This document shows, in pieces, positions 852 to 27,172 of a DNA stretch of 27,172 bases. Made by a program: the position numbers and the translations under genes. Numbering within the stretch: the stretch's first letter is position 1; every line of letters starts with the position of its first letter. The DNA is from a virus (lineage: Duplodnaviria; Heunggongvirae; Uroviricota; Caudoviricetes), in the IMG/VR virus record IMGVR_UViG_2844443253_000009; one strand, written 5' to 3'. The notes beneath the pieces were generated by a model. The model had not been told where the DNA came from and ran no database searches. It was given only the letters and a program-made list of their open reading frames with translations.

Positions 852-2603
852 ATGCTCCCGACAAATAACAATCACAGATTAATTTCAAATTCGTTCTCCA
901 CTTATTCAATCGACACTAGCCGCGCATATGAAAATTATCTAACCCATTGGACTGAATGGAAAAATAACCGCATACAAGAAGAACAACGAGACATCGCTTT
1001 TCAGCGACTAGTATCATGTCTACAAAACCAAGAGACGAACCTGGACTTGTCTGAATTAGGCCTGACAACATTACCTGAAATCCCCCCGGGAATTAAATCA
1101 ATTAATATAAGTAAAAATAATTTAAGCTTAATCTCCCCATTGCCTGCGTCCCTTACACAACTTAATGTCAGCTATAACAGACTTATTGAACTGCCTGCTT
1201 TGCCTCAAGGACTTAAATTATTGAATGCGTCCCACAATCAACTAATCACACTACCCACACTCCCCATATCTTTGAAGGAGCTTCATGTCTCAAATAATCA
1301 ATTATGTTCTCTTCCTGTTTTACCAGAACTACTGGAAACATTAGATGTATCATGTAATGGGCTGGCAGTTTTACCACCTTTACCATTTTCTTTACAAGAG
1401 ATTAGCGCAATAGGGAATCTTCTTAGTGAACTCCCCCCTCTACCTCACAACATTCACTCCATATGGGCAATCGACAATATGTTAACCGATATTCCATACC
1501 TGCCGGAAAATTTAAGGAACGGTTATTTTGACATAAATCAGATAAGTCATATCCCGGAAAGCATTCTTAATCTGAGGAATGAATGTTCAATAGATATTAG
1601 TGATAACCCATTGTCATCCCATGCTCTGCAATCCCTGCAAAGATTAACATCTTCGCCGGACTACCACGGCCCGCAGATTTACTTCTCCATGAGTGACGGA
1701 CAACAGAATACACTCCATCGCCCCCTGGCTGATGCCGTGACAGCATGGTTCCCGGAAAACAAACAATCTGATGTATCACAGATATGGCATGCTTTTGAAC
1801 ATGAAGAGCACGCCAACACCTTTTCCGCGTTCCTTGACCGCCTTTCCGATACCGTCTCTGCACGCAATACCTCCGGATTCCGTGAACAGGTCGCTGCATG
1901 GCTGGAAAAACTCAGTGCCTCTGCGGAGCTTCGACAGCAGTCTTTCGCTGTTGCTGCTGATGCCACTGAAAGCTGTGAGGACCGTGTCGCGCTCACATGG
2001 AACAATCTCCGGAAAACCCTCCTGGTCCATCAGGCATCTGAAGGCCTTTTCGATAATGATACCGGCGCTCTGCTCTCCCTGGGCAGGGAAATGTTCCGCC
2101 TCGAAATTCTGGAGGACATTGCCCGGGATAAAGTCAGAACTCTCCATTTTGTGGATGAGATAGAAGTCTACCTGGCCTTCCAGACCATGCTCGCAGAGAA
2201 ACTTCAGCTCTCCACTGCCGTGAAGGAAATGCGTTTCTATGGCGTGTCGGGAGTGACAGCAAATGACCTCCGCACTGCCGAAGCCATGGTCAGAAGCCGT
2301 GAAGAGAATGAATTTACGGACTGGTTCTCCCTCTGGGGACCATGGCATGCTGTACTGAAGCGTACGGAAGCTGACCGCTGGGCGCTGGCAGAAGAGCAGA
2401 AATATGAGATGCTGGAGAATGAGTACCCTCAGAGGGTGGCTGACCGGCTGAAAGCATCAGGTCTGAGCGGTGATGCGGATGCGGAGAGGGAAGCCGGTGC
2501 ACAGGTGATGCGTGAGACTGAACAGCAGATTTACCGTCAGCTGACTGACGAGGTACTGGCCCTGCGATTGCCTGAAAACGGCTCACAACTGCACCATTCA
2601 TAA
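852..2603 (+). CDS. ipaH: IpaH-family type III secreted effector, LRR domain plus C-terminal NEL E3 ubiquitin ligase domain
   Basis: 583 aa. N-terminal leucine-rich repeats (LxxLPxLPxxLxxLxxSxNxL). The C-terminal ~300 aa are near-identical to the conserved IpaH C-terminus as remembered (RNECSIDISDNPLSSHALQSLQRLTSSPDYHGPQIYFSM ... LHHS), including the catalytic-Cys region ESCEDRVALTWNNLRKT. Confidence 0.95.
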   Translation: MLPTNNNHRLISNSFSTYSIDTSRAYENYLTHWTEWKNNRIQEEQRDIAFQRLVSCLQNQETNLDLSELGLTTLPEIPPGIKSINISKNNLSLISPLPASLTQLNVSYNRLIELPALPQGLKLLNASHNQLITLPTLPISLKELHVSNNQLCSLPVLPELLETLDVSCNGLAVLPPLPFSLQEISAIGNLLSELPPLPHNIHSIWAIDNMLTDIPYLPENLRNGYFDINQISHIPESILNLRNECSIDISDNPLSSHALQSLQRLTSSPDYHGPQIYFSMSDGQQNTLHRPLADAVTAWFPENKQSDVSQIWHAFEHEEHANTFSAFLDRLSDTVSARNTSGFREQVAAWLEKLSASAELRQQSFAVAADATESCEDRVALTWNNLRKTLLVHQASEGLFDNDTGALLSLGREMFRLEILEDIARDKVRTLHFVDEIEVYLAFQTMLAEKLQLSTAVKEMRFYGVSGVTANDLRTAEAMVRSREENEFTDWFSLWGPWHAVLKRTEADRWALAEEQKYEMLENEYPQRVADRLKASGLSGDADAEREAGAQVMRETEQQIYRQLTDEVLALRLPENGSQLHHS

Positions 2604-20217: not shown

Positions 20218-20907
20218 TTAATCTACTTTTGCAATACTTTGCTTTGAAAATGCCGCTTTTTGTTCTGAACGTGTTCTCATCACAAACAATAAAGCCTCAC
20301 TATCCAGTCGGTGAAAAATGTGTTTCATTACAACCCAGTGACCAGTAAATGTTTTGGACCAGTTTTTGGTTGTTACTCCCGCCAGTAATGCCAGCTCCTG
20401 ATATTCATAACCTTCCCCACCAAAAAGTTCTGCTTTTACCGCCTGCGCCGCCAGCCAGATTAATTTTTTCAGGCGTTCCTGTGTTTTCTCTGCAATTTTC
20501 CTAGTGCCAGAATGAGCCTTAAACTCTTCCCACGCCCAGTGGGTTATGGTGATCTGATACTCCCAGCAAATACTTCCGCTGTAACACCACAACAACCAGG
20601 CTTTATAGTGCTCTTCAAGAGACAGAACAGCCCGCCGCCACGATGATGTCGAAAACGCAACCTGACTGACCAGAGGAATTGACGCCCCCTTCGCCAGTGA
20701 TTGTTTTCCCGGGATTGGTGGATTATCCCGCGTTATCATTTTTCCGGTCACCTCATCGCGGTACCGGATTTTTTTACGCCTGTAACGCCCTGTATCGAAC
20801 ATGGCATTCTCCTGCCAGGCTTCAAGCTGACCTTTTGTCGCCCCACTCAAATCAGCGGTGGCGATAATGAGCTGCTCACGAACAAACTGTAAATACTGGT
20901 TATTCAT
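20218..20907 (-). CDS. Putative late-gene antiterminator (Q-like), called from synteny
   Basis: 229 aa (MNNQYLQFVREQ...). ATG at 20907 overlaps the rusA stop (ATGA). It lies between rusA and the tRNA cluster, where Q sits in 82/933W-type lambdoid phages. No confident sequence-level match recalled. Confidence 0.45.
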   Translation of the reverse strand: MNNQYLQFVREQLIIATADLSGATKGQLEAWQENAMFDTGRYRRKKIRYRDEVTGKMITRDNPPIPGKQSLAKGASIPLVSQVAFSTSSWRRAVLSLEEHYKAWLLWCYSGSICWEYQITITHWAWEEFKAHSGTRKIAEKTQERLKKLIWLAAQAVKAELFGGEGYEYQELALLAGVTTKNWSKTFTGHWVVMKHIFHRLDSEALLFVMRTRSEQKAAFSKQSIAKVD

Positions 20908-21263
20908 GCACACTCCAGCTCTGTGATTTTTATCCCCAACCGACCACCAGGAACAGGCAGTCCGCGCACAATATTGGTTTCATCAAACTGCTCGTCGTCG
21001 ATAAGCAACCCCGCATGTGTCAGTGCATCCAGTGGTGCTTTCAGGATATTGTCCAGGTCACGACGCCGCTTATCCGGTGGCTCTGCAATAATCTTTATCG
21101 CCAGTCTTCCGGACAGGCTTAATTTCAGTCGCTGCTGACGGACAATAAGCGCCACATCCCGGCGATAACGCTCACCGGCTTTTGATACAAAATATGTGCT
21201 GCCACGACGTCGCCAGTAAGTATTCACCGTCGGCGGATAAGGTAAAATAAACTCATGGCGCAT
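20904..21263 (-). CDS. rusA: Holliday junction resolvase RusA
   Basis: 119 aa. YPPTVNTYWRRRG...DKRRRDLDNILKAPLDALTHAGLLIDDEQ...GGRLGIKITE matches the RusA family (E. coli RusA: PWPPSNNRYYRH...[29 protein letters not shown]...GGRLELTITE). Confidence 0.9.
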   Translation of the reverse strand: MRHEFILPYPPTVNTYWRRRGSTYFVSKAGERYRRDVALIVRQQRLKLSLSGRLAIKIIAEPPDKRRRDLDNILKAPLDALTHAGLLIDDEQFDETNIVRGLPVPGGRLGIKITELECA

Positions 21264-21400: not shown

Positions 21401-21466
21401 ATTGAGGTAGCCTGAGTTTAACGGACACTCCTTCCTGAAATAGAATGGCATCAGAAGGAGCCAATA

Positions 21467-21769
21467 ATGAGCAGAAAAACCCAACGTTACTCTAAATAGT
21501 TCAAAGCCGAAGCTGTCAGAACGGTTCTTGAAAATCAACTTTCGATCAGTGAAGGCGCTTCCCGATTATCCCTTCCTGAAGGCACTTTAGGACAATGGGT
21601 TACCGCCGCCAGAAAAGGGCTCGGTACTCCTGGTTCCCGCACGGTGGCTGAACTGGAATCTGAAATTCTGCAACTGCGTAAGGCGTTAAATGAAGCTCGC
21701 CTTGAGCGAGATATATTAAAAAAAGCAACAGCGTATTTTGCACAGGAGTCGCTGAAAAATACGCGTTAA
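21467..21769 (+). pseudogene. IS600 orfA with an in-frame amber stop at codon 11
   Basis: Translation reads MSRKTQRYSK-stop(TAG at 21497-21499)-FKAEAVRTVLENQLSISEGASRLSLPEGTLGQWVTAARKGLGTPGSRTVAELESEILQLRKALNEARLERDILKKATAYFAQESLKNTR. Intact IS600 OrfA has Glu at this codon (GAG to TAG). Confidence 0.8.
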
Positions 21770-21804
21770 TCGAACAATGGCGACAACAATTTCCCATTGA
21801 AGCG

Positions 21805-22623
21805 ATGTGTCAGGTATTTGGTGTATCCAGGAGCGGTTATTACAACTGGGTACAGCATGAACCCTCAGACAGAAAACAAAGTGATGAGCGGCTAAAACTG
21901 GAGATTAAGGTGGCACATATCCGCACTCGCGAAACATATGGAACCCGGCGGCTCCAGACGGAGCTGGCAGAGAATGGCATCATCGTTGGTCGTGACCGAC
22001 TGGCACGTCTTCGTAAGGAGCTGAGGCTACGCTGTAAGCAGAAACGCAAGTTCAGAGCGACTACGAACCCGAACCACAATCTGCCAGTTGCGCCAAATCT
22101 GCTGAACCAGACGTTCGCTCCTACAGCACCAAATCAGGTCTGGGTGGCGGACCTGACGTATGTTGCCACACAGGAGGGATGGTTGTACCTCGCTGGCATC
22201 AAAGATGTTTATACGTGTGAAATTGTCGGCTACGCCATGGGAGAGCGCATGACAAAAGAGCTGACAGGTAAAGCCCTGTTTATGGCGCTCAGGAGCCAGC
22301 GCCCACCTGCCGGGCTAATCCACCACTCTGATCGAGGTTCACAGTACTGCGCATACGATTACCGGGTCATACAGGAGCAGTTTGGTCTGAAAACATCAAT
22401 GTCGCGTAAAGGTAACTGTTACGACAACGCTCCGATGGAAAGCTTCTGGGGAACGCTGAAAAATGAGAGCCTGAGCCACTATCGTTTTAATAACCGGGAT
22501 GAAGCCATCTCAGTAATACGGGAATACATTGAGATTTTCTACAATCGTCAGCGTCGTCACTCTCGTCTGGGGAATATCTCCCCGGCAGCCTTCAGGGAAA
22601 AATATCATCAGATGGCTGCTTAA
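21805..22623 (+). CDS. IS600 orfB (DDE integrase core; normally made as an OrfAB fusion by -1 frameshift)
   Basis: 272 aa with an rve-type catalytic core (VWVADLTYV ... HSDRGSQY ... NCYDNAPMESFWGTLK). Frame is -1 relative to orfA. Confidence 0.9.
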   Translation: MCQVFGVSRSGYYNWVQHEPSDRKQSDERLKLEIKVAHIRTRETYGTRRLQTELAENGIIVGRDRLARLRKELRLRCKQKRKFRATTNPNHNLPVAPNLLNQTFAPTAPNQVWVADLTYVATQEGWLYLAGIKDVYTCEIVGYAMGERMTKELTGKALFMALRSQRPPAGLIHHSDRGSQYCAYDYRVIQEQFGLKTSMSRKGNCYDNAPMESFWGTLKNESLSHYRFNNRDEAISVIREYIEIFYNRQRRHSRLGNISPAAFREKYHQMAA

Positions 22624-22665
22624 AAAAGAACAAATGGTAGTGTCCGCTATTGCCAGTACACCTCA

Positions 22666-22875
22666 CAACGCCATCCTGACAAGCGTTTTATCTTCAACGG
22701 GAATGAGATATGGAAACGTGGAGAATCAACCACAGAGTATACCCGCGCACACCAGCGAACAATCAGACGACTGCGCAGACTCATCGCCAGGAAACAGTAT
22801 ACAGAAAAATGGTTCAGAAAATATGACACATGGAGCGCCGGATATTACGAACTGATGGCAACAAAACCATTCTGA
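22666..22875 (+). other. 5'-truncated ORF remnant starting at the IS600 right boundary
   Basis: The open frame begins at the IS boundary and has no start codon: QRHPDKRFIFNGNEIWKRGESTTEYTRAHQRTIRRLRRLIARKQYTEKWFRKYDTWSAGYYELMATKPF-stop. It is protein-like but no family is recognised. Confidence 0.3.
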
Positions 22876-22935
22876 CGTAAACGAAATTAACCATGACGCA
22901 ATTAAATAAGGCAAGCCGAATACATCAGGAGGACC

Positions 22936-23124
22936 ATGAACATTTATTTCAGAATAGTTATATCACTGGCAATTATCGCATGTATTTACGGATTAATCGT
23001 TCCGGCCCTCATATCAATGAAGGATACGGTAGCAGTGATTTCTGGCTTTGCTCTGGCGTGTCTGACCCCGCCCTGCATTTATGCCATTTATAAGGGTCTT
23101 TCTTTTTCTAAGGATAAAAGATGA
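22936..23124 (+). CDS. Small membrane protein (62 aa, two predicted transmembrane helices)
   Basis: Strong RBS (AGGAGGACC) before the ATG. Two hydrophobic segments (IVISLAIIACIYGLIVPALI and VAVISGFALACLTPPCIYAIY). Stop overlaps the start of the next gene (ATGA). Confidence 0.6.
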   Translation: MNIYFRIVISLAIIACIYGLIVPALISMKDTVAVISGFALACLTPPCIYAIYKGLSFSKDKR

Positions 23125-23948
23125 AAAAAGTTATTCCTGCTTTAGCCCTTGTTCTGCTGACCACCGGACTTGTCGGTTGCGATCGCGTTGAGCCTGGTAA
23201 TGTTGGCATCAAGGTAAACAAACTGGGCGACGATAAAGGCGTCGGAGAAGTGGTCGGTGTTGGGCGCTACTGGACGGGATGGAACACTGAGGTTTACATC
23301 TTCCCGACCTTCAAACAAATGAAGACCTACGATGAGCCATTCAGCTTCCAGATGAGTGACGGTACAACCATCGGCTATCACATCGGCGTGGCCTACAAAG
23401 TTGATCCATCCAAAGTTACCACAGTCTTTCAGACCTACCGCAAAGGCGTGGACGACATTACCGACACCGACCTGCGCCAGAAGATAGCCGACGCACTCAA
23501 CCGACTGGCCAGCAAAATGACCACCGACAAATTTATCGACGGCGGCAAGTCTGAGCTGCTGGATGCAGCTCTTAAAGACATTCAGGAAGAAATGACGCCC
23601 ATCGGTATTCAGGTAATGAGCCTCTCATATGTGGGTAAGCCGGAGTACCCGCCTACTGTTATCGACAGCATTAATGCCAAAGTCACGGCGAACCAGAAAA
23701 CCCTGCAATGCGAGCAGGAAGTAAAACAGCGCGAAGCGGAAGCCAACATGTTGCGCGCGGAAGCTGCCGGACAGGCAGATGCGATTCGCACAAAAGCCCA
23801 GGCCGAAGCCGATGCTATTCGTTTACGCGGTGAAGCTCTGCGCCAGAACCCAAACGTTATGGAGCTGGAAGCCATCAACAAGTGGAACGGTACACTGCCG
23901 CAATACATGACCAGCGGTGCCAACACACCATTTATTCAGGTTAAGTAA
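23121..23948 (+). CDS. SPFH/band-7 (prohibitin/HflC-like) domain lipoprotein
   Basis: 275 aa. Lipoprotein signal peptide with lipobox LVGC (MKKVIPALALVLLTTGLVGCD). Central band-7-like region and a C-terminal Ala/Glu-rich coiled coil (QREAEANMLRAEAAGQADAIRTKAQAEADAIRLRGEALRQ). Confidence 0.8.
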   Translation: MKKVIPALALVLLTTGLVGCDRVEPGNVGIKVNKLGDDKGVGEVVGVGRYWTGWNTEVYIFPTFKQMKTYDEPFSFQMSDGTTIGYHIGVAYKVDPSKVTTVFQTYRKGVDDITDTDLRQKIADALNRLASKMTTDKFIDGGKSELLDAALKDIQEEMTPIGIQVMSLSYVGKPEYPPTVIDSINAKVTANQKTLQCEQEVKQREAEANMLRAEAAGQADAIRTKAQAEADAIRLRGEALRQNPNVMELEAINKWNGTLPQYMTSGANTPFIQVK

Positions 23949-23991
23949 TACATATGCCCGGTATTACACGCCGGGCTGTCTGGAGATAAAA

Positions 23992-24741
23992 ATGAATACT
24001 GTAACCATCAACAACAAACAGTTTCCGGTAATCGAATATCGCGGTCAGCGTGTTGTGACGCTGGCGATGATTGATGAAGTCCACCAGCGACCGGAAGGAA
24101 CCGCGCGTGCAGCATTCAACCGAAACCGTGAGCATTTCATCAGCGGTGTGGATTATGCCGAATTAGGTGCGGACGTAATACGTACGGACCTCCCGGAAGG
24201 AACATTCTCTAAATTTGCACCATCGGGGATTGTACTTTTTGAATCAGGTTACCTGATGTTGACGAAGCCATTCAATGACGCCCTTGCCTGGCAGGTTCAG
24301 CGCGAACTGGTTAACAGCTACTTCCGCACTCGCACACCGCTAACGGAAATCGAGATGATCGCTGCGATAGCCGCCGACGCTGTTCGTCAACAGAAGCGCC
24401 TGAATCATGTGGAAGAACAGCTCGAAACAGTCACAGAAGCGGTGGAAACCATCAAACGCGGAAATATGCGCGCCGGATATGTCGGTTACCGCCAGGTGGT
24501 AGCCAAAAGTGGAATGAGTGACACCAAGTGTCGGAATCTGGTGAACGCATATCAAATTCCTACAGACACCCACGAATTCATGACTCCGGACGGTCTGTTG
24601 TCTCGCAGGGCTATCGTCGAGCTTGAGCCATTTATGGCGGCGTTCCACCAAATGATGTCAGAGGCTGACCCACGCGGCACACGCTGGTATCACCCGAAGA
24701 TGGGGCTTTTCCAGGTGATCGGATGGGAGGATAAAGCATGA
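23992..24741 (+). CDS. Phage antirepressor-like protein (ORF6N N-domain, ORF6C-like C-domain)
   Basis: Start at MNTVTINNKQFPVIEYRGQRVVTLAMIDEVHQRPEGTARAAFNRNREHFISGVDY, the characteristic ORF6N (KilA-N-like) signature. RBS GGAGA. The ORF track starts 25 codons upstream. Confidence 0.7.
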   Translation: MNTVTINNKQFPVIEYRGQRVVTLAMIDEVHQRPEGTARAAFNRNREHFISGVDYAELGADVIRTDLPEGTFSKFAPSGIVLFESGYLMLTKPFNDALAWQVQRELVNSYFRTRTPLTEIEMIAAIAADAVRQQKRLNHVEEQLETVTEAVETIKRGNMRAGYVGYRQVVAKSGMSDTKCRNLVNAYQIPTDTHEFMTPDGLLSRRAIVELEPFMAAFHQMMSEADPRGTRWYHPKMGLFQVIGWEDKA

Positions 24742-25307
24742 TCATCCAGTCAAAACTTATTCGCGCCGCTCTGGTGTGCGCTGCTAAAAACGACGTTCGT
24801 TATTACCTGAACGGTCTTCACATCACGCCGAAACATATTGAGGCAACCAATGGTTCCGTGGCACTGCGCATGGCTCACGGCATCCGGACGAAGAAAAACA
24901 TCATTGTCCAGTTCGAAGGGGGCGTCCCGGCCAAAGCCGAAACGACAGAGCTGATTTTTAGTAAAGAGCCGATCGCTGTTCATCGCGACCAGTTTCAGCG
25001 ACGACTGTCCATTACCGGCATTAAACTGGTGGACGGTTGTTTTCCGGATTTGGATCGCATCATTCCGAAAAAGTTTGACCGCTGTACTCACCCGGTGCTC
25101 CAGGCGGGTTACCTGAGTTATCCAGAGAAGATGTTTGGTCGTGAGCGTAAATTTATTCCCGTCCAGTTACGTCCCTCCGGTGACGGGCAAGCGGTCAGAA
25201 TTCAGTTTGATTCCATCATCAACTCAATGTATGGCAATCCTGAATTTGTTGTGATGCCTTGTCGTGATCATGGCGATTTCAACGTGGCTCAGGAGCATCC
25301 GGAATGA
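24738..25307 (+). CDS. Truncated DNA polymerase III beta sliding-clamp (DnaN) homolog, about half length
   Basis: 189 aa. Aligns to E. coli DnaN domains II-III as remembered: DVRYYLNGLHI...IEATNGSVALRM vs DVRYYLNGMLF...TVATDGHRLAV; IAVHRDQF...KLVDGCFPDLDRIIPKKFD vs IRAHVGDF...KLVDGRFPDYRRVLPKNPD; EFVVMPCR vs AAYVVMPMRL. Strong RBS (GGGAGG); ATGA overlap with the upstream gene. Confidence 0.7.
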   Translation: MIIQSKLIRAALVCAAKNDVRYYLNGLHITPKHIEATNGSVALRMAHGIRTKKNIIVQFEGGVPAKAETTELIFSKEPIAVHRDQFQRRLSITGIKLVDGCFPDLDRIIPKKFDRCTHPVLQAGYLSYPEKMFGRERKFIPVQLRPSGDGQAVRIQFDSIINSMYGNPEFVVMPCRDHGDFNVAQEHPE

Positions 25308-25426
25308 AAATCGAATACCAGGACGCCGCAGGAGGTGAATCAATGAGCTGGCCTGATGCAATCGTAACTCTGGGGATGGTATTCGCAGTAGCGTTTGTTG
25401 TGTACTCGATTTGTCGATGGGGATAA
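25304..25426 (+). CDS. Small hydrophobic peptide (40 aa, or 27 aa from the internal ATG)
   Basis: Not in the ORF track (under 60 aa). MKIEYQDAAGGESMSWPDAIVTLGMVFAVAFVVYSICRWG. ATG overlaps the clamp-like gene stop (ATGA). The internal ATG at 25343 is preceded by AGGAGGTGAATCA, and the C-terminal 20 aa form one hydrophobic helix. Confidence 0.35.
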   Translation: MKIEYQDAAGGESMSWPDAIVTLGMVFAVAFVVYSICRWG

Positions 25427-25430
25427 CCAC

Positions 25431-25673
25431 ATGTTCGCTTTGATTCAACGCGGGCAGATATACACAGACAGAGCCGGATACCCAGTAGAAATTACTCGCA
25501 GTACTGAGCACTCAGTGTTCTTTCGGAGGATGGACGGACGTACCGGGCGAGTACGCATCGGTGAATTCAGTAGCCTGTTCGAGCATATTGACCACCTGGA
25601 ATATCACAAGATTCTGGCTGAAACAGAACAAGAAAAGCACCTGAAGAAATTACGCGCAATGCAAAGGAAGTAA
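25431..25673 (+). CDS. Hypothetical protein (80 aa)
   Basis: ORF from MFALIQRGQIYTDRAGYPVEI..., same strand and tightly spaced within the operon. No family recognised. Confidence 0.45.
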   Translation: MFALIQRGQIYTDRAGYPVEITRSTEHSVFFRRMDGRTGRVRIGEFSSLFEHIDHLEYHKILAETEQEKHLKKLRAMQRK

Positions 25674-25676
25674 AAA

Positions 25677-25823
25677 ATGAATAAAGCGTTTGAGCTATGG
25701 GTCCACCAGCGTTACGGCAACCACTACGACCTGACGCGAGATGTTGACGGTTTCTACTGTCGTGAAATTGTGAAACGAATGTTTGAGGTCTGGTGCCACT
25801 GCCGTGGGCTGAGTGTTGTGTGA
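25677..25823 (+). CDS. Hypothetical small protein (48 aa)
   Basis: MNKAFELWVHQRYGNHYDLTRDVDGFYCREIVKRMFEVWCHCRGLSVV with an AAGGAAG RBS. Not in the ORF track (under 60 aa). Confidence 0.4.
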   Translation: MNKAFELWVHQRYGNHYDLTRDVDGFYCREIVKRMFEVWCHCRGLSVV

Positions 25824-25831
25824 GGTAATGC

Positions 25832-25995
25832 ATGGGCAATGTGATTCAACTGGCTCCCAATGAATGGGTTTGTGAAAGCGTTCTAATCGCAATTACCGGG
25901 CTCAAACCAGGCACAATTCTTCGGACCCGGAAAGAATGCTGGATGGTTGGAAGAGAGTATATTCACGTATCACCAGACGGTAATCCAAAGCCTTC
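25832..25995 (+). pseudogene. Small phage ORF, 3'-truncated by the IS911 insertion
   Basis: MGNVIQLAPNEWVCESVLIAITGLKPGTILRTRKECWMVGREYIHVSPDGNPKP is followed directly by the IS911 terminal sequence (TGAAGTGGTCAACAAAAACTGGCCACC); the last 11 codons of the track ORF are IS-encoded. GAGGT RBS. Confidence 0.4.
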
Positions 25996-26003
25996 TGAAG
26001 TGG

Positions 26004-27172
<1,169 letters not shown>

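Follow-up and report, generated by a model that had tools for sequence, protein, structure and literature searches.

The window analyzed here, a 27,172-nt stretch of viral DNA (IMG/VR record IMGVR_UViG_2844443253_000009), carries a compact block of small genes between two insertion sequence (IS) elements, IS600 and IS911, and the locus raises the question of what this block is and what its genes do. A sequence-only reading had taken it for a translationally coupled accessory operon from the early-left region of a prophage, where exclusion or abortive-infection functions might reside. We found that positions 22668-25995 are best explained as an orphaned fragment of a phiP27-like lambdoid prophage, decayed and carrying ipaH, that is located at yecE in Shigella flexneri. 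The fragment would correspond to the promoter-distal end of the early-left (pL-type) operon, where it runs into xis and int. We assign this explanation as a whole a probability of about 0.8. The identity, setting, boundaries and mosaic build of the parts, their folds and their conservation are shown by the data; the expression pattern, the membrane topology and what an SPFH protein and a truncated beta-clamp homologue of the block do at the molecular level are inferred.

The 3.3-kb stretch holds eight closely packed open reading frames (ORFs) on the plus strand (Table 1). ATGA stop/start overlaps could be read in the sequence at 23121, 24738 and 25304; annotations of E. coli relatives show them as well, and the remaining intergenic gaps measure 3-43 nt. 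Comparison with relatives yielded ratios of nonsynonymous to synonymous substitution rates (dN/dS) of 0.02-0.26 for seven of the eight genes (those for the 62-aa, SPFH, ORF6N, clamp-like, DUF4222, 48-aa and Xis products), and these seven ORFs are therefore real genes. Minus-strand ORFs of 90-113 aa were considered as genes and rejected, since a Pfam search at E ≤ 10 gave them no family match and they lie antisense to genes under purifying selection. A search of the block against Rfam revealed nothing real, the two matches at E ≤ 1 being eukaryotic and at chance level.

The position of these genes in intact prophages identifies the block. At least 80% of it was present in 51 of 5426 complete E. 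coli genomes, at ~93-94% identity. Intact prophages of E. coli PEC240, RMDEC332 and FDAARGOS_1283 carry on one strand a LexA/cI-like repressor, a helix-turn-helix protein, several small ORFs, a ParE-like gene and a 130-aa ORF, followed by the 62-aa gene, SPFH, ORF6N, the clamp-like gene, the 40-aa ORF, DUF4222, the 48-aa ORF, xis, int and the yecE attachment site; the block genes are thus co-oriented with the upstream early genes. In phiP27 and phage Fraca the same position, adjoining xis-int, is occupied. Because intact relatives place these genes between the repressor and xis-int, the block is the promoter-distal end of an early-left operon. The window itself reads, in order, ipaH, tail genes including J, FI, an IS110-family element, Q and rusA (minus strand), IS600, the block and IS911. 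Its ipaH gene (852-2603, plus strand) encodes a full-length IpaH-type type III secretion effector with LRR_TTSS and NEL E3 ligase domains and is found towards the tail-fibre genes, at that end of the decayed prophage, which on account of this gene is an ipaH carrier at yecE.

Both ends of the fragment are marked by IS elements. Phage DNA begins at 22668, directly after IS600, with the remnant of a ninth gene that is 98.7-100% identical to its intact relatives (12001-12191 in locus L002; 8001-8191 in locus L003, which is E. coli RMDEC332). The flanks of IS600 (CATAT on one side, CAACG on the other) show no 3-bp target duplication, and the element joins the rusA/Q region (minus strand, left flank) to the middle of the 130-aa gene. 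Since there is no target-site duplication and rusA/Q lies on the other side, IS600 marks a deletion junction and not a simple insertion. Comparison with an intact relative revealed that the IS600-linked deletion, of ~8 kb, took replication, immunity (the repressor), pL and the proximal early-left genes. S. flexneri SFBU1023 and one record labelled 'E. coli' share the identical IS600/phage junction. In a prophage of this type in E. coli RMDEC332, an independent IS600 flanked by a CAT target duplication interrupts the start codon of the 62-aa gene (L003 8272-9538), and the region is suggested to be a recurrent IS600 target. Also gone from the window through the IS600 deletion is a gene for a 'ParE family toxin-like protein', found two genes upstream of the 62-aa gene in intact relatives (L002 11604-11822; L003 7604-7822).

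At the other end, phage homology stops at 25995, and at 25997 begins the terminal repeat TGAAGTGGTCAACAAAAACTGGCC, which we take to be the inverted repeat of IS911. An alignment to the complete Xis of E. coli PEC240 (78 aa) revealed that xis is cut by IS911 at codon 55/78. In S. flexneri SFBU1023 the DNA beyond IS911 matches yecE (17183-17479 in the intact relative L002), and so the 3' end of xis, int, attR and part of yecE have been deleted. The sequence-only reading was largely accurate in its description of the locus: it gave correctly the eight crowded ORFs of the plus strand, their three ATGA overlaps and the IS elements on either side, its end coordinate of 25995 is exact, and the upstream context and the 3' end were indeed lost to IS600 and IS911, respectively. 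The genes do belong to a prophage early-left accessory region; intact relatives have them on one strand between a cI/LexA-like repressor and xis-int-attR at yecE.

Decay has continued within the block. In S. flexneri SFBU1023 (L015 2627-3406) an IS1 with a 9-bp duplication, GGATAAAAG, corresponding to window positions 23112-23120, has entered exactly where the 62-aa and SPFH genes overlap. This IS1 is missing from the window; since a sister strain already carries it in the block, the fragment is decaying. The SPFH allele of the window carries R197C (QREQ to QCEQ; 23709-23711) and, near the C-terminus, G245N (23853-23855), both unique among the copies compared; selection on the gene may thus have begun to relax. 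Taken as a locus, this is a prophage remnant of an ordinary kind in the course of decay, and RefSeq already gives its genes domain-based annotations.

We then considered how such a fragment might be expressed. A crude consensus scan of both strands of 22400-26200 found 0 sigma70-like sites where 4.3 were expected, and a terminator scan called no plus-strand terminator between IS600 orfB and the genes. Given the 0 promoter-like sites, the fragment would have no promoter of its own, and read-through from the co-oriented IS600 transposase genes would be the only evident source of transcription. In the intact phage, judging from the missing promoter-like sites and the shared orientation with upstream early genes, the block would be transcribed from a repressor-controlled early promoter, only on release of the repressor (that is, upon infection or induction), and the compact polycistron would be translated with coupled stop/start overlaps.

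These data bear on whether the fragment does anything in Shigella at present. We give roughly even odds to the view that it is dead DNA, its ORFs intact only because the IS events are recent, and that it serves no present function. Promoter, repressor, int and attR have been lost, the sister strain has an IS1 at the 62-aa/SPFH junction, and the two SPFH substitutions found only in the window fall at otherwise invariant positions; on the other side, read-through from IS600 is possible. This view is compatible with the orphaned-fragment explanation as far as the present state is concerned, but it is silent on the role of the genes in intact phages, where purifying selection is clear. Two points count against our account of decay and silence: every ORF except xis is still intact, which could mean residual selection, and the promoter scan is a crude consensus test of the sequence.

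Table 1. Features of the gene block and its flanking elements, with positions in the window
Feature	Position	Strand	Basis or remark
IS600 (IS3 family)	21401-22667	+	99.5% identity over 1268 bp to annotated IS600 of E. coli RMDEC332; co-oriented with the operon
Ninth gene, 3' remnant without start, 68 codons and stop	22669-22875	+	from a 130-aa early-left gene, WP_000566775 family
ORF1, 62-aa peptide with two predicted transmembrane segments	22936-23124	+	Shine-Dalgarno AGGAGG at 22925-22930; phrog_1130 'membrane protein' 7e-24
ORF2, SPFH/Band-7 predicted lipoprotein, 275 aa	23121-23948	+	PF01145 6e-31; phrog_200 6e-114
GC-rich stem-loop	23956-23976	+	7-bp stem, loop of 7, 7 nt past the SPFH stop
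ORF3, ORF6N-domain (KilA-N-like) protein, 249 aa	23992-24741	+	PF10543 2e-12
ORF4, truncated beta-clamp homologue, 189 aa	24738-25307	+	DnaN domain II and first/last elements of domain III
ORF5, hydrophobic peptide with one predicted transmembrane segment	25304-25426 (40 aa) or 25343-25426 (27 aa)	+	hydropathy
ORF6, DUF4222 protein, 80 aa	25431-25673	+	PF13973 1e-15; phrog_285
ORF7, 48-aa protein	25677-25823	+	phrog_3871 9e-35
ORF8, truncated excisionase (DUF1233)	25832-25995; ORF continues into IS911 to 26029 (65 aa)	+	PF06806 7e-23; phrog_539 excisionase
IS911 (IS3 family)	25997-27172, runs off the window	-	transposase ORFs 26004-26843 and 26870-27172, minus strand

The sequence-only reading had treated the combination of membrane components, a replication-protein mimic and an antirepressor as meaningful, and this is contradicted by the mosaic build of the region among phages. 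phiP27 has the 62-aa gene, SPFH, DUF4222, the 48-aa ORF and xis, with other genes between them and without ORF6N or the clamp-like gene. Fraca has the 62-aa gene, SPFH and ORF6N, followed by a different gene and by xis; of the block, phi467 carries just ORF6N, DUF4222 and the 48-aa ORF; and E. coli FDAARGOS_1283 carries three extra genes after the clamp-like gene, including an Ea22-like gene and a DUF551 gene. Identity between the window and RMDEC332 also differs by gene, from 100% for the clamp-like and DUF4222 genes to 91.8% for SPFH and 86.6% for ORF6N. Because the genes recombine independently among phages, their combination is not a meaningful unit. On these gene arrangements, the block reads as a string of at least four independently exchangeable modules and not as one machine. 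The modules would be (1) the two-transmembrane peptide, the SPFH protein and the hairpin, (2) ORF6N, (3) the truncated beta-clamp and (4) the transmembrane peptide, DUF4222, the 48-aa ORF and xis. It had also been allowed that intact prophages might expose these as ordinary recombination or replication genes of known function; this applied to xis alone, the others having no known function.

A comparable setting is the exo-xis region of lambda and Stx phages (ea22, ea8.5, orf60a, orf61, orf63), where small, non-essential, mobile ORFs likewise lie at the distal pL end directly upstream of xis. Those genes are expressed early and have been reported to bias the lysis-lysogeny decision, or lysogenisation and induction (PMC3824215, PMC8614690, PMC7093339). 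An Ea22-like gene lies inside the block in E. coli FDAARGOS_1283 and adjoins the SPFH genes in phage P88. The likeness has limits: neither Pfam nor PHROG placed a canonical exo-xis gene (ea22, ea8.5, orf60a/61/63) in the window, and, unlike the setting of the exo-xis region, no exo, bet or gam is annotated upstream in the intact relatives of the block.

The first module, which we call the SPFH cassette, begins with the 62-aa gene (dN/dS 0.16-0.20). By hydropathy its product has two hydrophobic segments separated by MKD and followed by a basic tail, and a Pfam search to E ≤ 10 returned nothing for it except a match of 0.052 to DUF6320. The SPFH protein matched PF01145 with 108.2 bits against a gathering threshold of 23.6, with the whole profile covered, and is laid out as a lipobox (LVGC), an Asp at +2, the SPFH domain, a coiled-coil and a C-terminal tail. 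The lipobox fits the pattern [LVI][ASTVI][GAS]C (MKKVIPALALVLLTTGLVGC followed by D) behind a hydrophobic core at residues 3-21, and lipidation is thus a prediction; the GC of the lipobox is invariant in all seven homologues aligned. The gene has a dN/dS of 0.02-0.26, and the nearest solved relative of the protein by sequence is HflK (3e-4). The two-transmembrane peptide and the SPFH lipoprotein had both been called rightly from the sequence.

Homologues of the SPFH lipoprotein were found in 382 phage records, including Schitoviridae, Bruynoghevirus and phiCbK-like, crAss-like and Lak phages. In phiP27, Fraca, P88, a P1-like phage and S6, which is N4-like and virulent, the SPFH gene starts within a small membrane ORF homologous or analogous to the 62-aa gene; Pseudomonas phage DL54 has an ORF with one transmembrane segment in its place. 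In the P2-like phage P88 the cassette lies inside the early operon, after the Ea22-like gene, and its start overlaps the preceding gene. In the P1-like phage its place is the one taken in P1 by plp-upl-tciABC, within the C1-controlled ban operon. Mature SPFH proteins are >90% identical among the phiP27, P88 and P1-like copies and 85% identical to that of Fraca; the partner peptides are only 20-24% identical across these phages, yet still alignable. An equation of the cassette with P1 upl-plp was rejected: P1 Plp has 125 aa and is encoded on the other strand, and the cassette replaces plp-upl-tciABC in some P1-like phages. Since the cassette is not upl-plp, CRISPR interference data on upl/plp (PMC10695390) are irrelevant to it.

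The cassette ends in a hairpin, GCCCGG-N9-CCGGGC, which does lie between the SPFH and ORF6N genes as had been noted, at 23956-23976 and not at 23952-23972. Its folding energy of -14.4 kcal/mol (z -1.6) is unexceptional for its composition. The stem GCCCGG(C)...(G)CCGGGC is shared by the window, Fraca and phiP27, each of which has a loop of its own; phiP27 also has a different downstream gene, and P88 has a different 8-bp GC stem at the same place. As the stem travels with the cassette despite a different downstream gene, the hairpin forms the 3' boundary of the cassette. No U-tract follows the stem (UGUCUGGAG comes after 23976) and the terminator scan did not call it, so the hairpin does not qualify as an intrinsic terminator. 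Most simply, it would be an mRNA 3'-end or stability element.

What might the cassette do? From the lipobox, Asp(+2), SPFH domain, coiled-coil and tail, we infer that the two-transmembrane peptide and the SPFH lipoprotein would assemble, while the phage grows lytically, into an oligomeric cage like that of HflK/C at the periplasmic side of the inner membrane. The protein resembles HflK and HflC in having an SPFH domain, a coiled-coil and a C-terminal tail and in a presumed periplasm-facing orientation. It differs from them in being phage-borne and in being anchored by a predicted lipid, where HflK/C use an N-terminal transmembrane helix, and its best score against the HflK/HflC equivalog models of NCBIfam, 23.9 bits, lies below their cut-offs of 134-660. 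The cassette could be a phage-made HflK/C-like cage controlling FtsH. The likeliest roles, each proposed tentatively and with about equal weight, would be modulation of a membrane protease such as FtsH and a shielding of the membrane against secondary infection or DNA entry. One observation counts against this placement: Asp(+2) is not kept outside the enterobacterial temperate copies, being Tyr in N4-like S6 and Ser in Pseudomonas DL54, so localisation may differ across the family.

Two other known arrangements are similar in part. In NfeD-SPFH pairs a small membrane-protein gene is coupled ahead of an SPFH gene, and the cassette shares this translationally coupled order, but its 62-aa partner has no NfeD domain by Pfam. 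Morons are cassettes of promoter, gene and terminator (PMC3594210). The 62-aa/SPFH/hairpin unit is insertion-like in the same way, occurring at different sites in unrelated phages and ending in a GC stem-loop; in contrast to morons, it has no upstream promoter-like site, its stem-loop has no U-tract, and in P88 its start overlaps the preceding gene.

The distribution of the cassette also bears on the proposal that the block, or its membrane part, is a superinfection-exclusion or abortive-infection system protecting the lysogen. Accessory regions adjoining int often carry such genes, and the block holds two membrane peptides, a lipoprotein and a replication-protein mimic; the mobility of the SPFH cassette among unrelated temperate phages, at >90% aa identity, is likewise what defence cargo often displays. 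However, none of the nine products, the upstream remnant included, matched PADLOC-DB 2.0 at E ≤ 0.01 (0 matches), the genes assort independently, and the block has no promoter-like site. Its place in the P88 early operon and in the C1-controlled ban slot of the P1-like phage would keep the cassette repressed in a lysogen, virulent phages commonly encode the SPFH lipoprotein and the clamp-like protein, and a literature search found no paper linking SPFH proteins to phage defence or exclusion. PADLOC-DB dates from 2023, and an undescribed defence role could for that reason be missed, which tells against our interpretation. Positive evidence for exclusion or abortive infection was not found, and we consider such a role very unlikely. 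Because in three temperate backbones the genes belong to early operons under repressor control, and because homologues are frequent in virulent phages and the block has no promoter-like sites, we favor functions used in infection and not in the resting lysogen.

We next turn to the 189-aa clamp-like protein, for which the label of a mini beta-clamp proved right. A profile built from 32 homologues matched DnaN residues 136-292 at 3e-13, hhalign gave a DnaN probability of 98.3%, and an AlphaFold model computed from the 32-sequence alignment (pLDDT 89, pTM 0.85) has the clamp fold. The protein consists of DnaN domain II, the first beta-alpha-beta element and the last two strands of domain III, so that DnaN residues ~136-290 and ~341-366 are represented; domain I and residues ~291-340 (about 50 domain III residues) are absent. 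It is not a three-domain DnaN, scoring 21 bits against 138 for TIGR00663 and 17 bits against 27 for PF02767. Many phage proteins of 178-210 aa with the same fold are present in BFVD. By tblastn, the family occurs in 253 phage records, including virulent Skatevirus-type siphoviruses, and an exhaustive profile search at E ≤ 1e-10 collected 1008 cluster representatives (50% identity). Among the best 150 of these 1008, 139 have lengths of 170-214 aa and the rest are shorter fragments. A search of the literature for phage proteins that are truncated, clamp-like or decoys of the clamp turned up no study of their function.

Across 140 representatives, with a median identity of 28% to the window protein, the most conserved positions correspond to DnaN D150, R152, Y154, L155, G157, T172, G174, H175, P242, M362, P363 and R365. 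In DnaN, the partner-binding cleft includes P363 and G174, and the loop H148-R152 contacts DNA and translesion synthesis (TLS) polymerases (PMC4045847); what the clamp cleft does in general has been described (PMC9690074). The protein would thus keep the partner-binding cleft and the DNA/TLS-polymerase loop and be without the parts for a closed dimeric ring, and it might capture host proteins bearing a clamp-binding motif, or redirect them. By this reasoning the family could be a large phage class of clamp mimics, acting off the ring as decoy or adaptor for clamp-motif proteins (Pol III alpha, Hda, TLS polymerases, MutS/L), an idea that we regard as possible but doubtful. If true, phages would have here a means of taking over the host that is the mirror image of the phage proteins known to bind the clamp itself.

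Several features weigh against a mimic of this kind. The residues listed are also the most conserved of DnaN in general, and their prominence may partly reflect how the family was found. The domain II and C-terminal cleft residues are conserved family-wide, while the domain III contributors are deleted: mid-domain III, which supplies N320 and Y323 to the cleft of DnaN, falls in the missing segment. At the equivalent of H175, moreover, the E. coli/Shigella alleles have Ser or Phe (Ser in the window).

The same homology might instead indicate a genuine minimal processivity factor that forms an oligomeric ring, for example of four copies of 1.5 domains or like the trimeric beta*, with the block as a replication/recombination module. 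The clear beta-clamp fold and homology agree with this, as do the many phage records that name homologues 'DNA polymerase III beta subunit'. Skaliter, Paz-Elizur and Livneh reportedly described in 1996 a shorter E. coli beta* made from an internal dnaN start near codon 135, close to where the homology of the 189-aa protein begins. The protein is similar to beta* and full-length clamps in its homology to DnaN from ~residue 136, its fold and its conserved cleft and loop-2 residues. It is unlike them in size, with 189 aa against 232 aa (beta*) and 366 aa (beta), and it also has no DnaN 291-340; its relatives, 170-214 aa long, make up a large family of their own, apart from beta* and beta. The conserved residues D150/R152 of the DNA-contacting loop (PMC4045847) are again in favor of a processivity factor, but domain I and ~50 residues of domain III are absent, and the model does not predict the second channel-lining helix of domain II.

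Genomic context also speaks against a processivity factor. In prophages the gene lies among small accessory ORFs, far from replication genes; in Providencia, Serratia and Limnobaculum it is early-left, between the repressor and the prophage end (marked by an integrase in two of them, with none called in Serratia). In Salmonella phage Skate and Shewanella phage 1/41 it stands alone among structural genes, outside any replication module. That some prophages have the gene and others much like them do not suggests that it is dispensable. A ring-forming processivity factor is in our judgment unlikely, and a decoy or adaptor, tentative as it is, remains our preferred interpretation of the clamp-like protein.

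Further observations concern the same gene. In Skate (L004 3553-5525) it follows a ParB-HTH (helix-turn-helix) gene and is flanked by a bidirectional terminator, and in both Skate and Shewanella phage 1/41 (L005 5001-5549) it is a small insert oriented opposite to the structural genes around it. In phrog_3007 the short clamp-like proteins go under the name 'RusA-like Holliday junction resolvase', which many RefSeq phage records have taken over. Fold and sequence, those of a DnaN fragment, contradict this name, and the true RusA of the prophage is encoded at 20904-21263; the name given by the PGAP pipeline in relatives is merely 'beta clamp domain-containing protein'.

The neighboring ORF6N gene, whose ATG at 23992 is the start annotated in relatives, is 91.9% identical to that of phage phi467, with a dN/dS of 0.07. 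Its product had been called an ORF6N/ORF6C antirepressor-like protein. The ORF6N domain was recovered (PF10543, 47.6 bits against a gathering threshold of 27.8), the C-terminal half had no family match, and no ORF6C or ANT domain appeared in Pfam even at E ≤ 10. The 'anti-repressor' label comes solely from PHROG family names, so that this activity is putative; the ORF6N module would be a DNA-binding protein. We make no claim for a conserved pair of DNA-binding protein and clamp mimic, as the upstream gene in Skate is of the ParB-HTH type and not ORF6N. In the Providencia, Serratia and Limnobaculum prophages a Bro-N, pRha or ORF6N gene is near the clamp-like gene, not adjacent to it.

The three small ORFs noted at the distal end, besides the hydrophobic peptide, are present, and one of them is the excisionase gene (DUF1233) truncated by IS911. 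For the hydrophobic 40-aa ORF, an in-frame ATG at 25343 has a strong Shine-Dalgarno sequence, AGGAGGTG, at 25330-25337 with N5 spacing, and in E. coli FDAARGOS_1283 a module boundary, where homology starts, lies just upstream of AGGAGGTG and this ATG. The real product is probably a 27-aa transmembrane peptide from 25343, and given this likely start the ATGA at 25304, readable as it is, may be incidental. The ORF shows 3-4 substitutions among relatives, all nonsynonymous but conservative, and its coding status is putative. Values of dN/dS were 0.08-0.10 for the DUF4222 gene and 0.06-0.11 against four relatives for the 48-aa gene. The 48-aa product contains a C-x11-C-H-C arrangement (C28, C40, H41, C42) that could bind metal, and its gene usually travels with DUF4222, directly upstream of xis. 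The excisionase domain (PF06806) scored 80.5 bits against a gathering threshold of 22; truncated at codon 55/78 and fused to IS911 sequence, the xis fragment is very likely non-functional. Outside the block, an IS110-family transposase gene (DEDD_Tnp_IS110 and Transposase_20; 17836-19032, plus strand) stands between the FI packaging gene (17171-17572) and Q (20218-20913). Since lysis and head genes would be expected there, a second large deletion near 17836-19032 is likely.

As a locus, the block documents how IS600, IS911 and IS1 dismantle an ipaH-carrying Shigella prophage and strand a piece of its early operon. Its wider interest is limited to the clamp mimic and the SPFH cassette, which represent two widespread, functionally unstudied phage families. 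The cassette is highly mobile and occurs in temperate as well as virulent phages that infect many different hosts, which suggests that it has a general role at the membrane during infection. If the truncated clamp should act as a decoy or adaptor, it would provide a new route for phage interference with host replication and repair.

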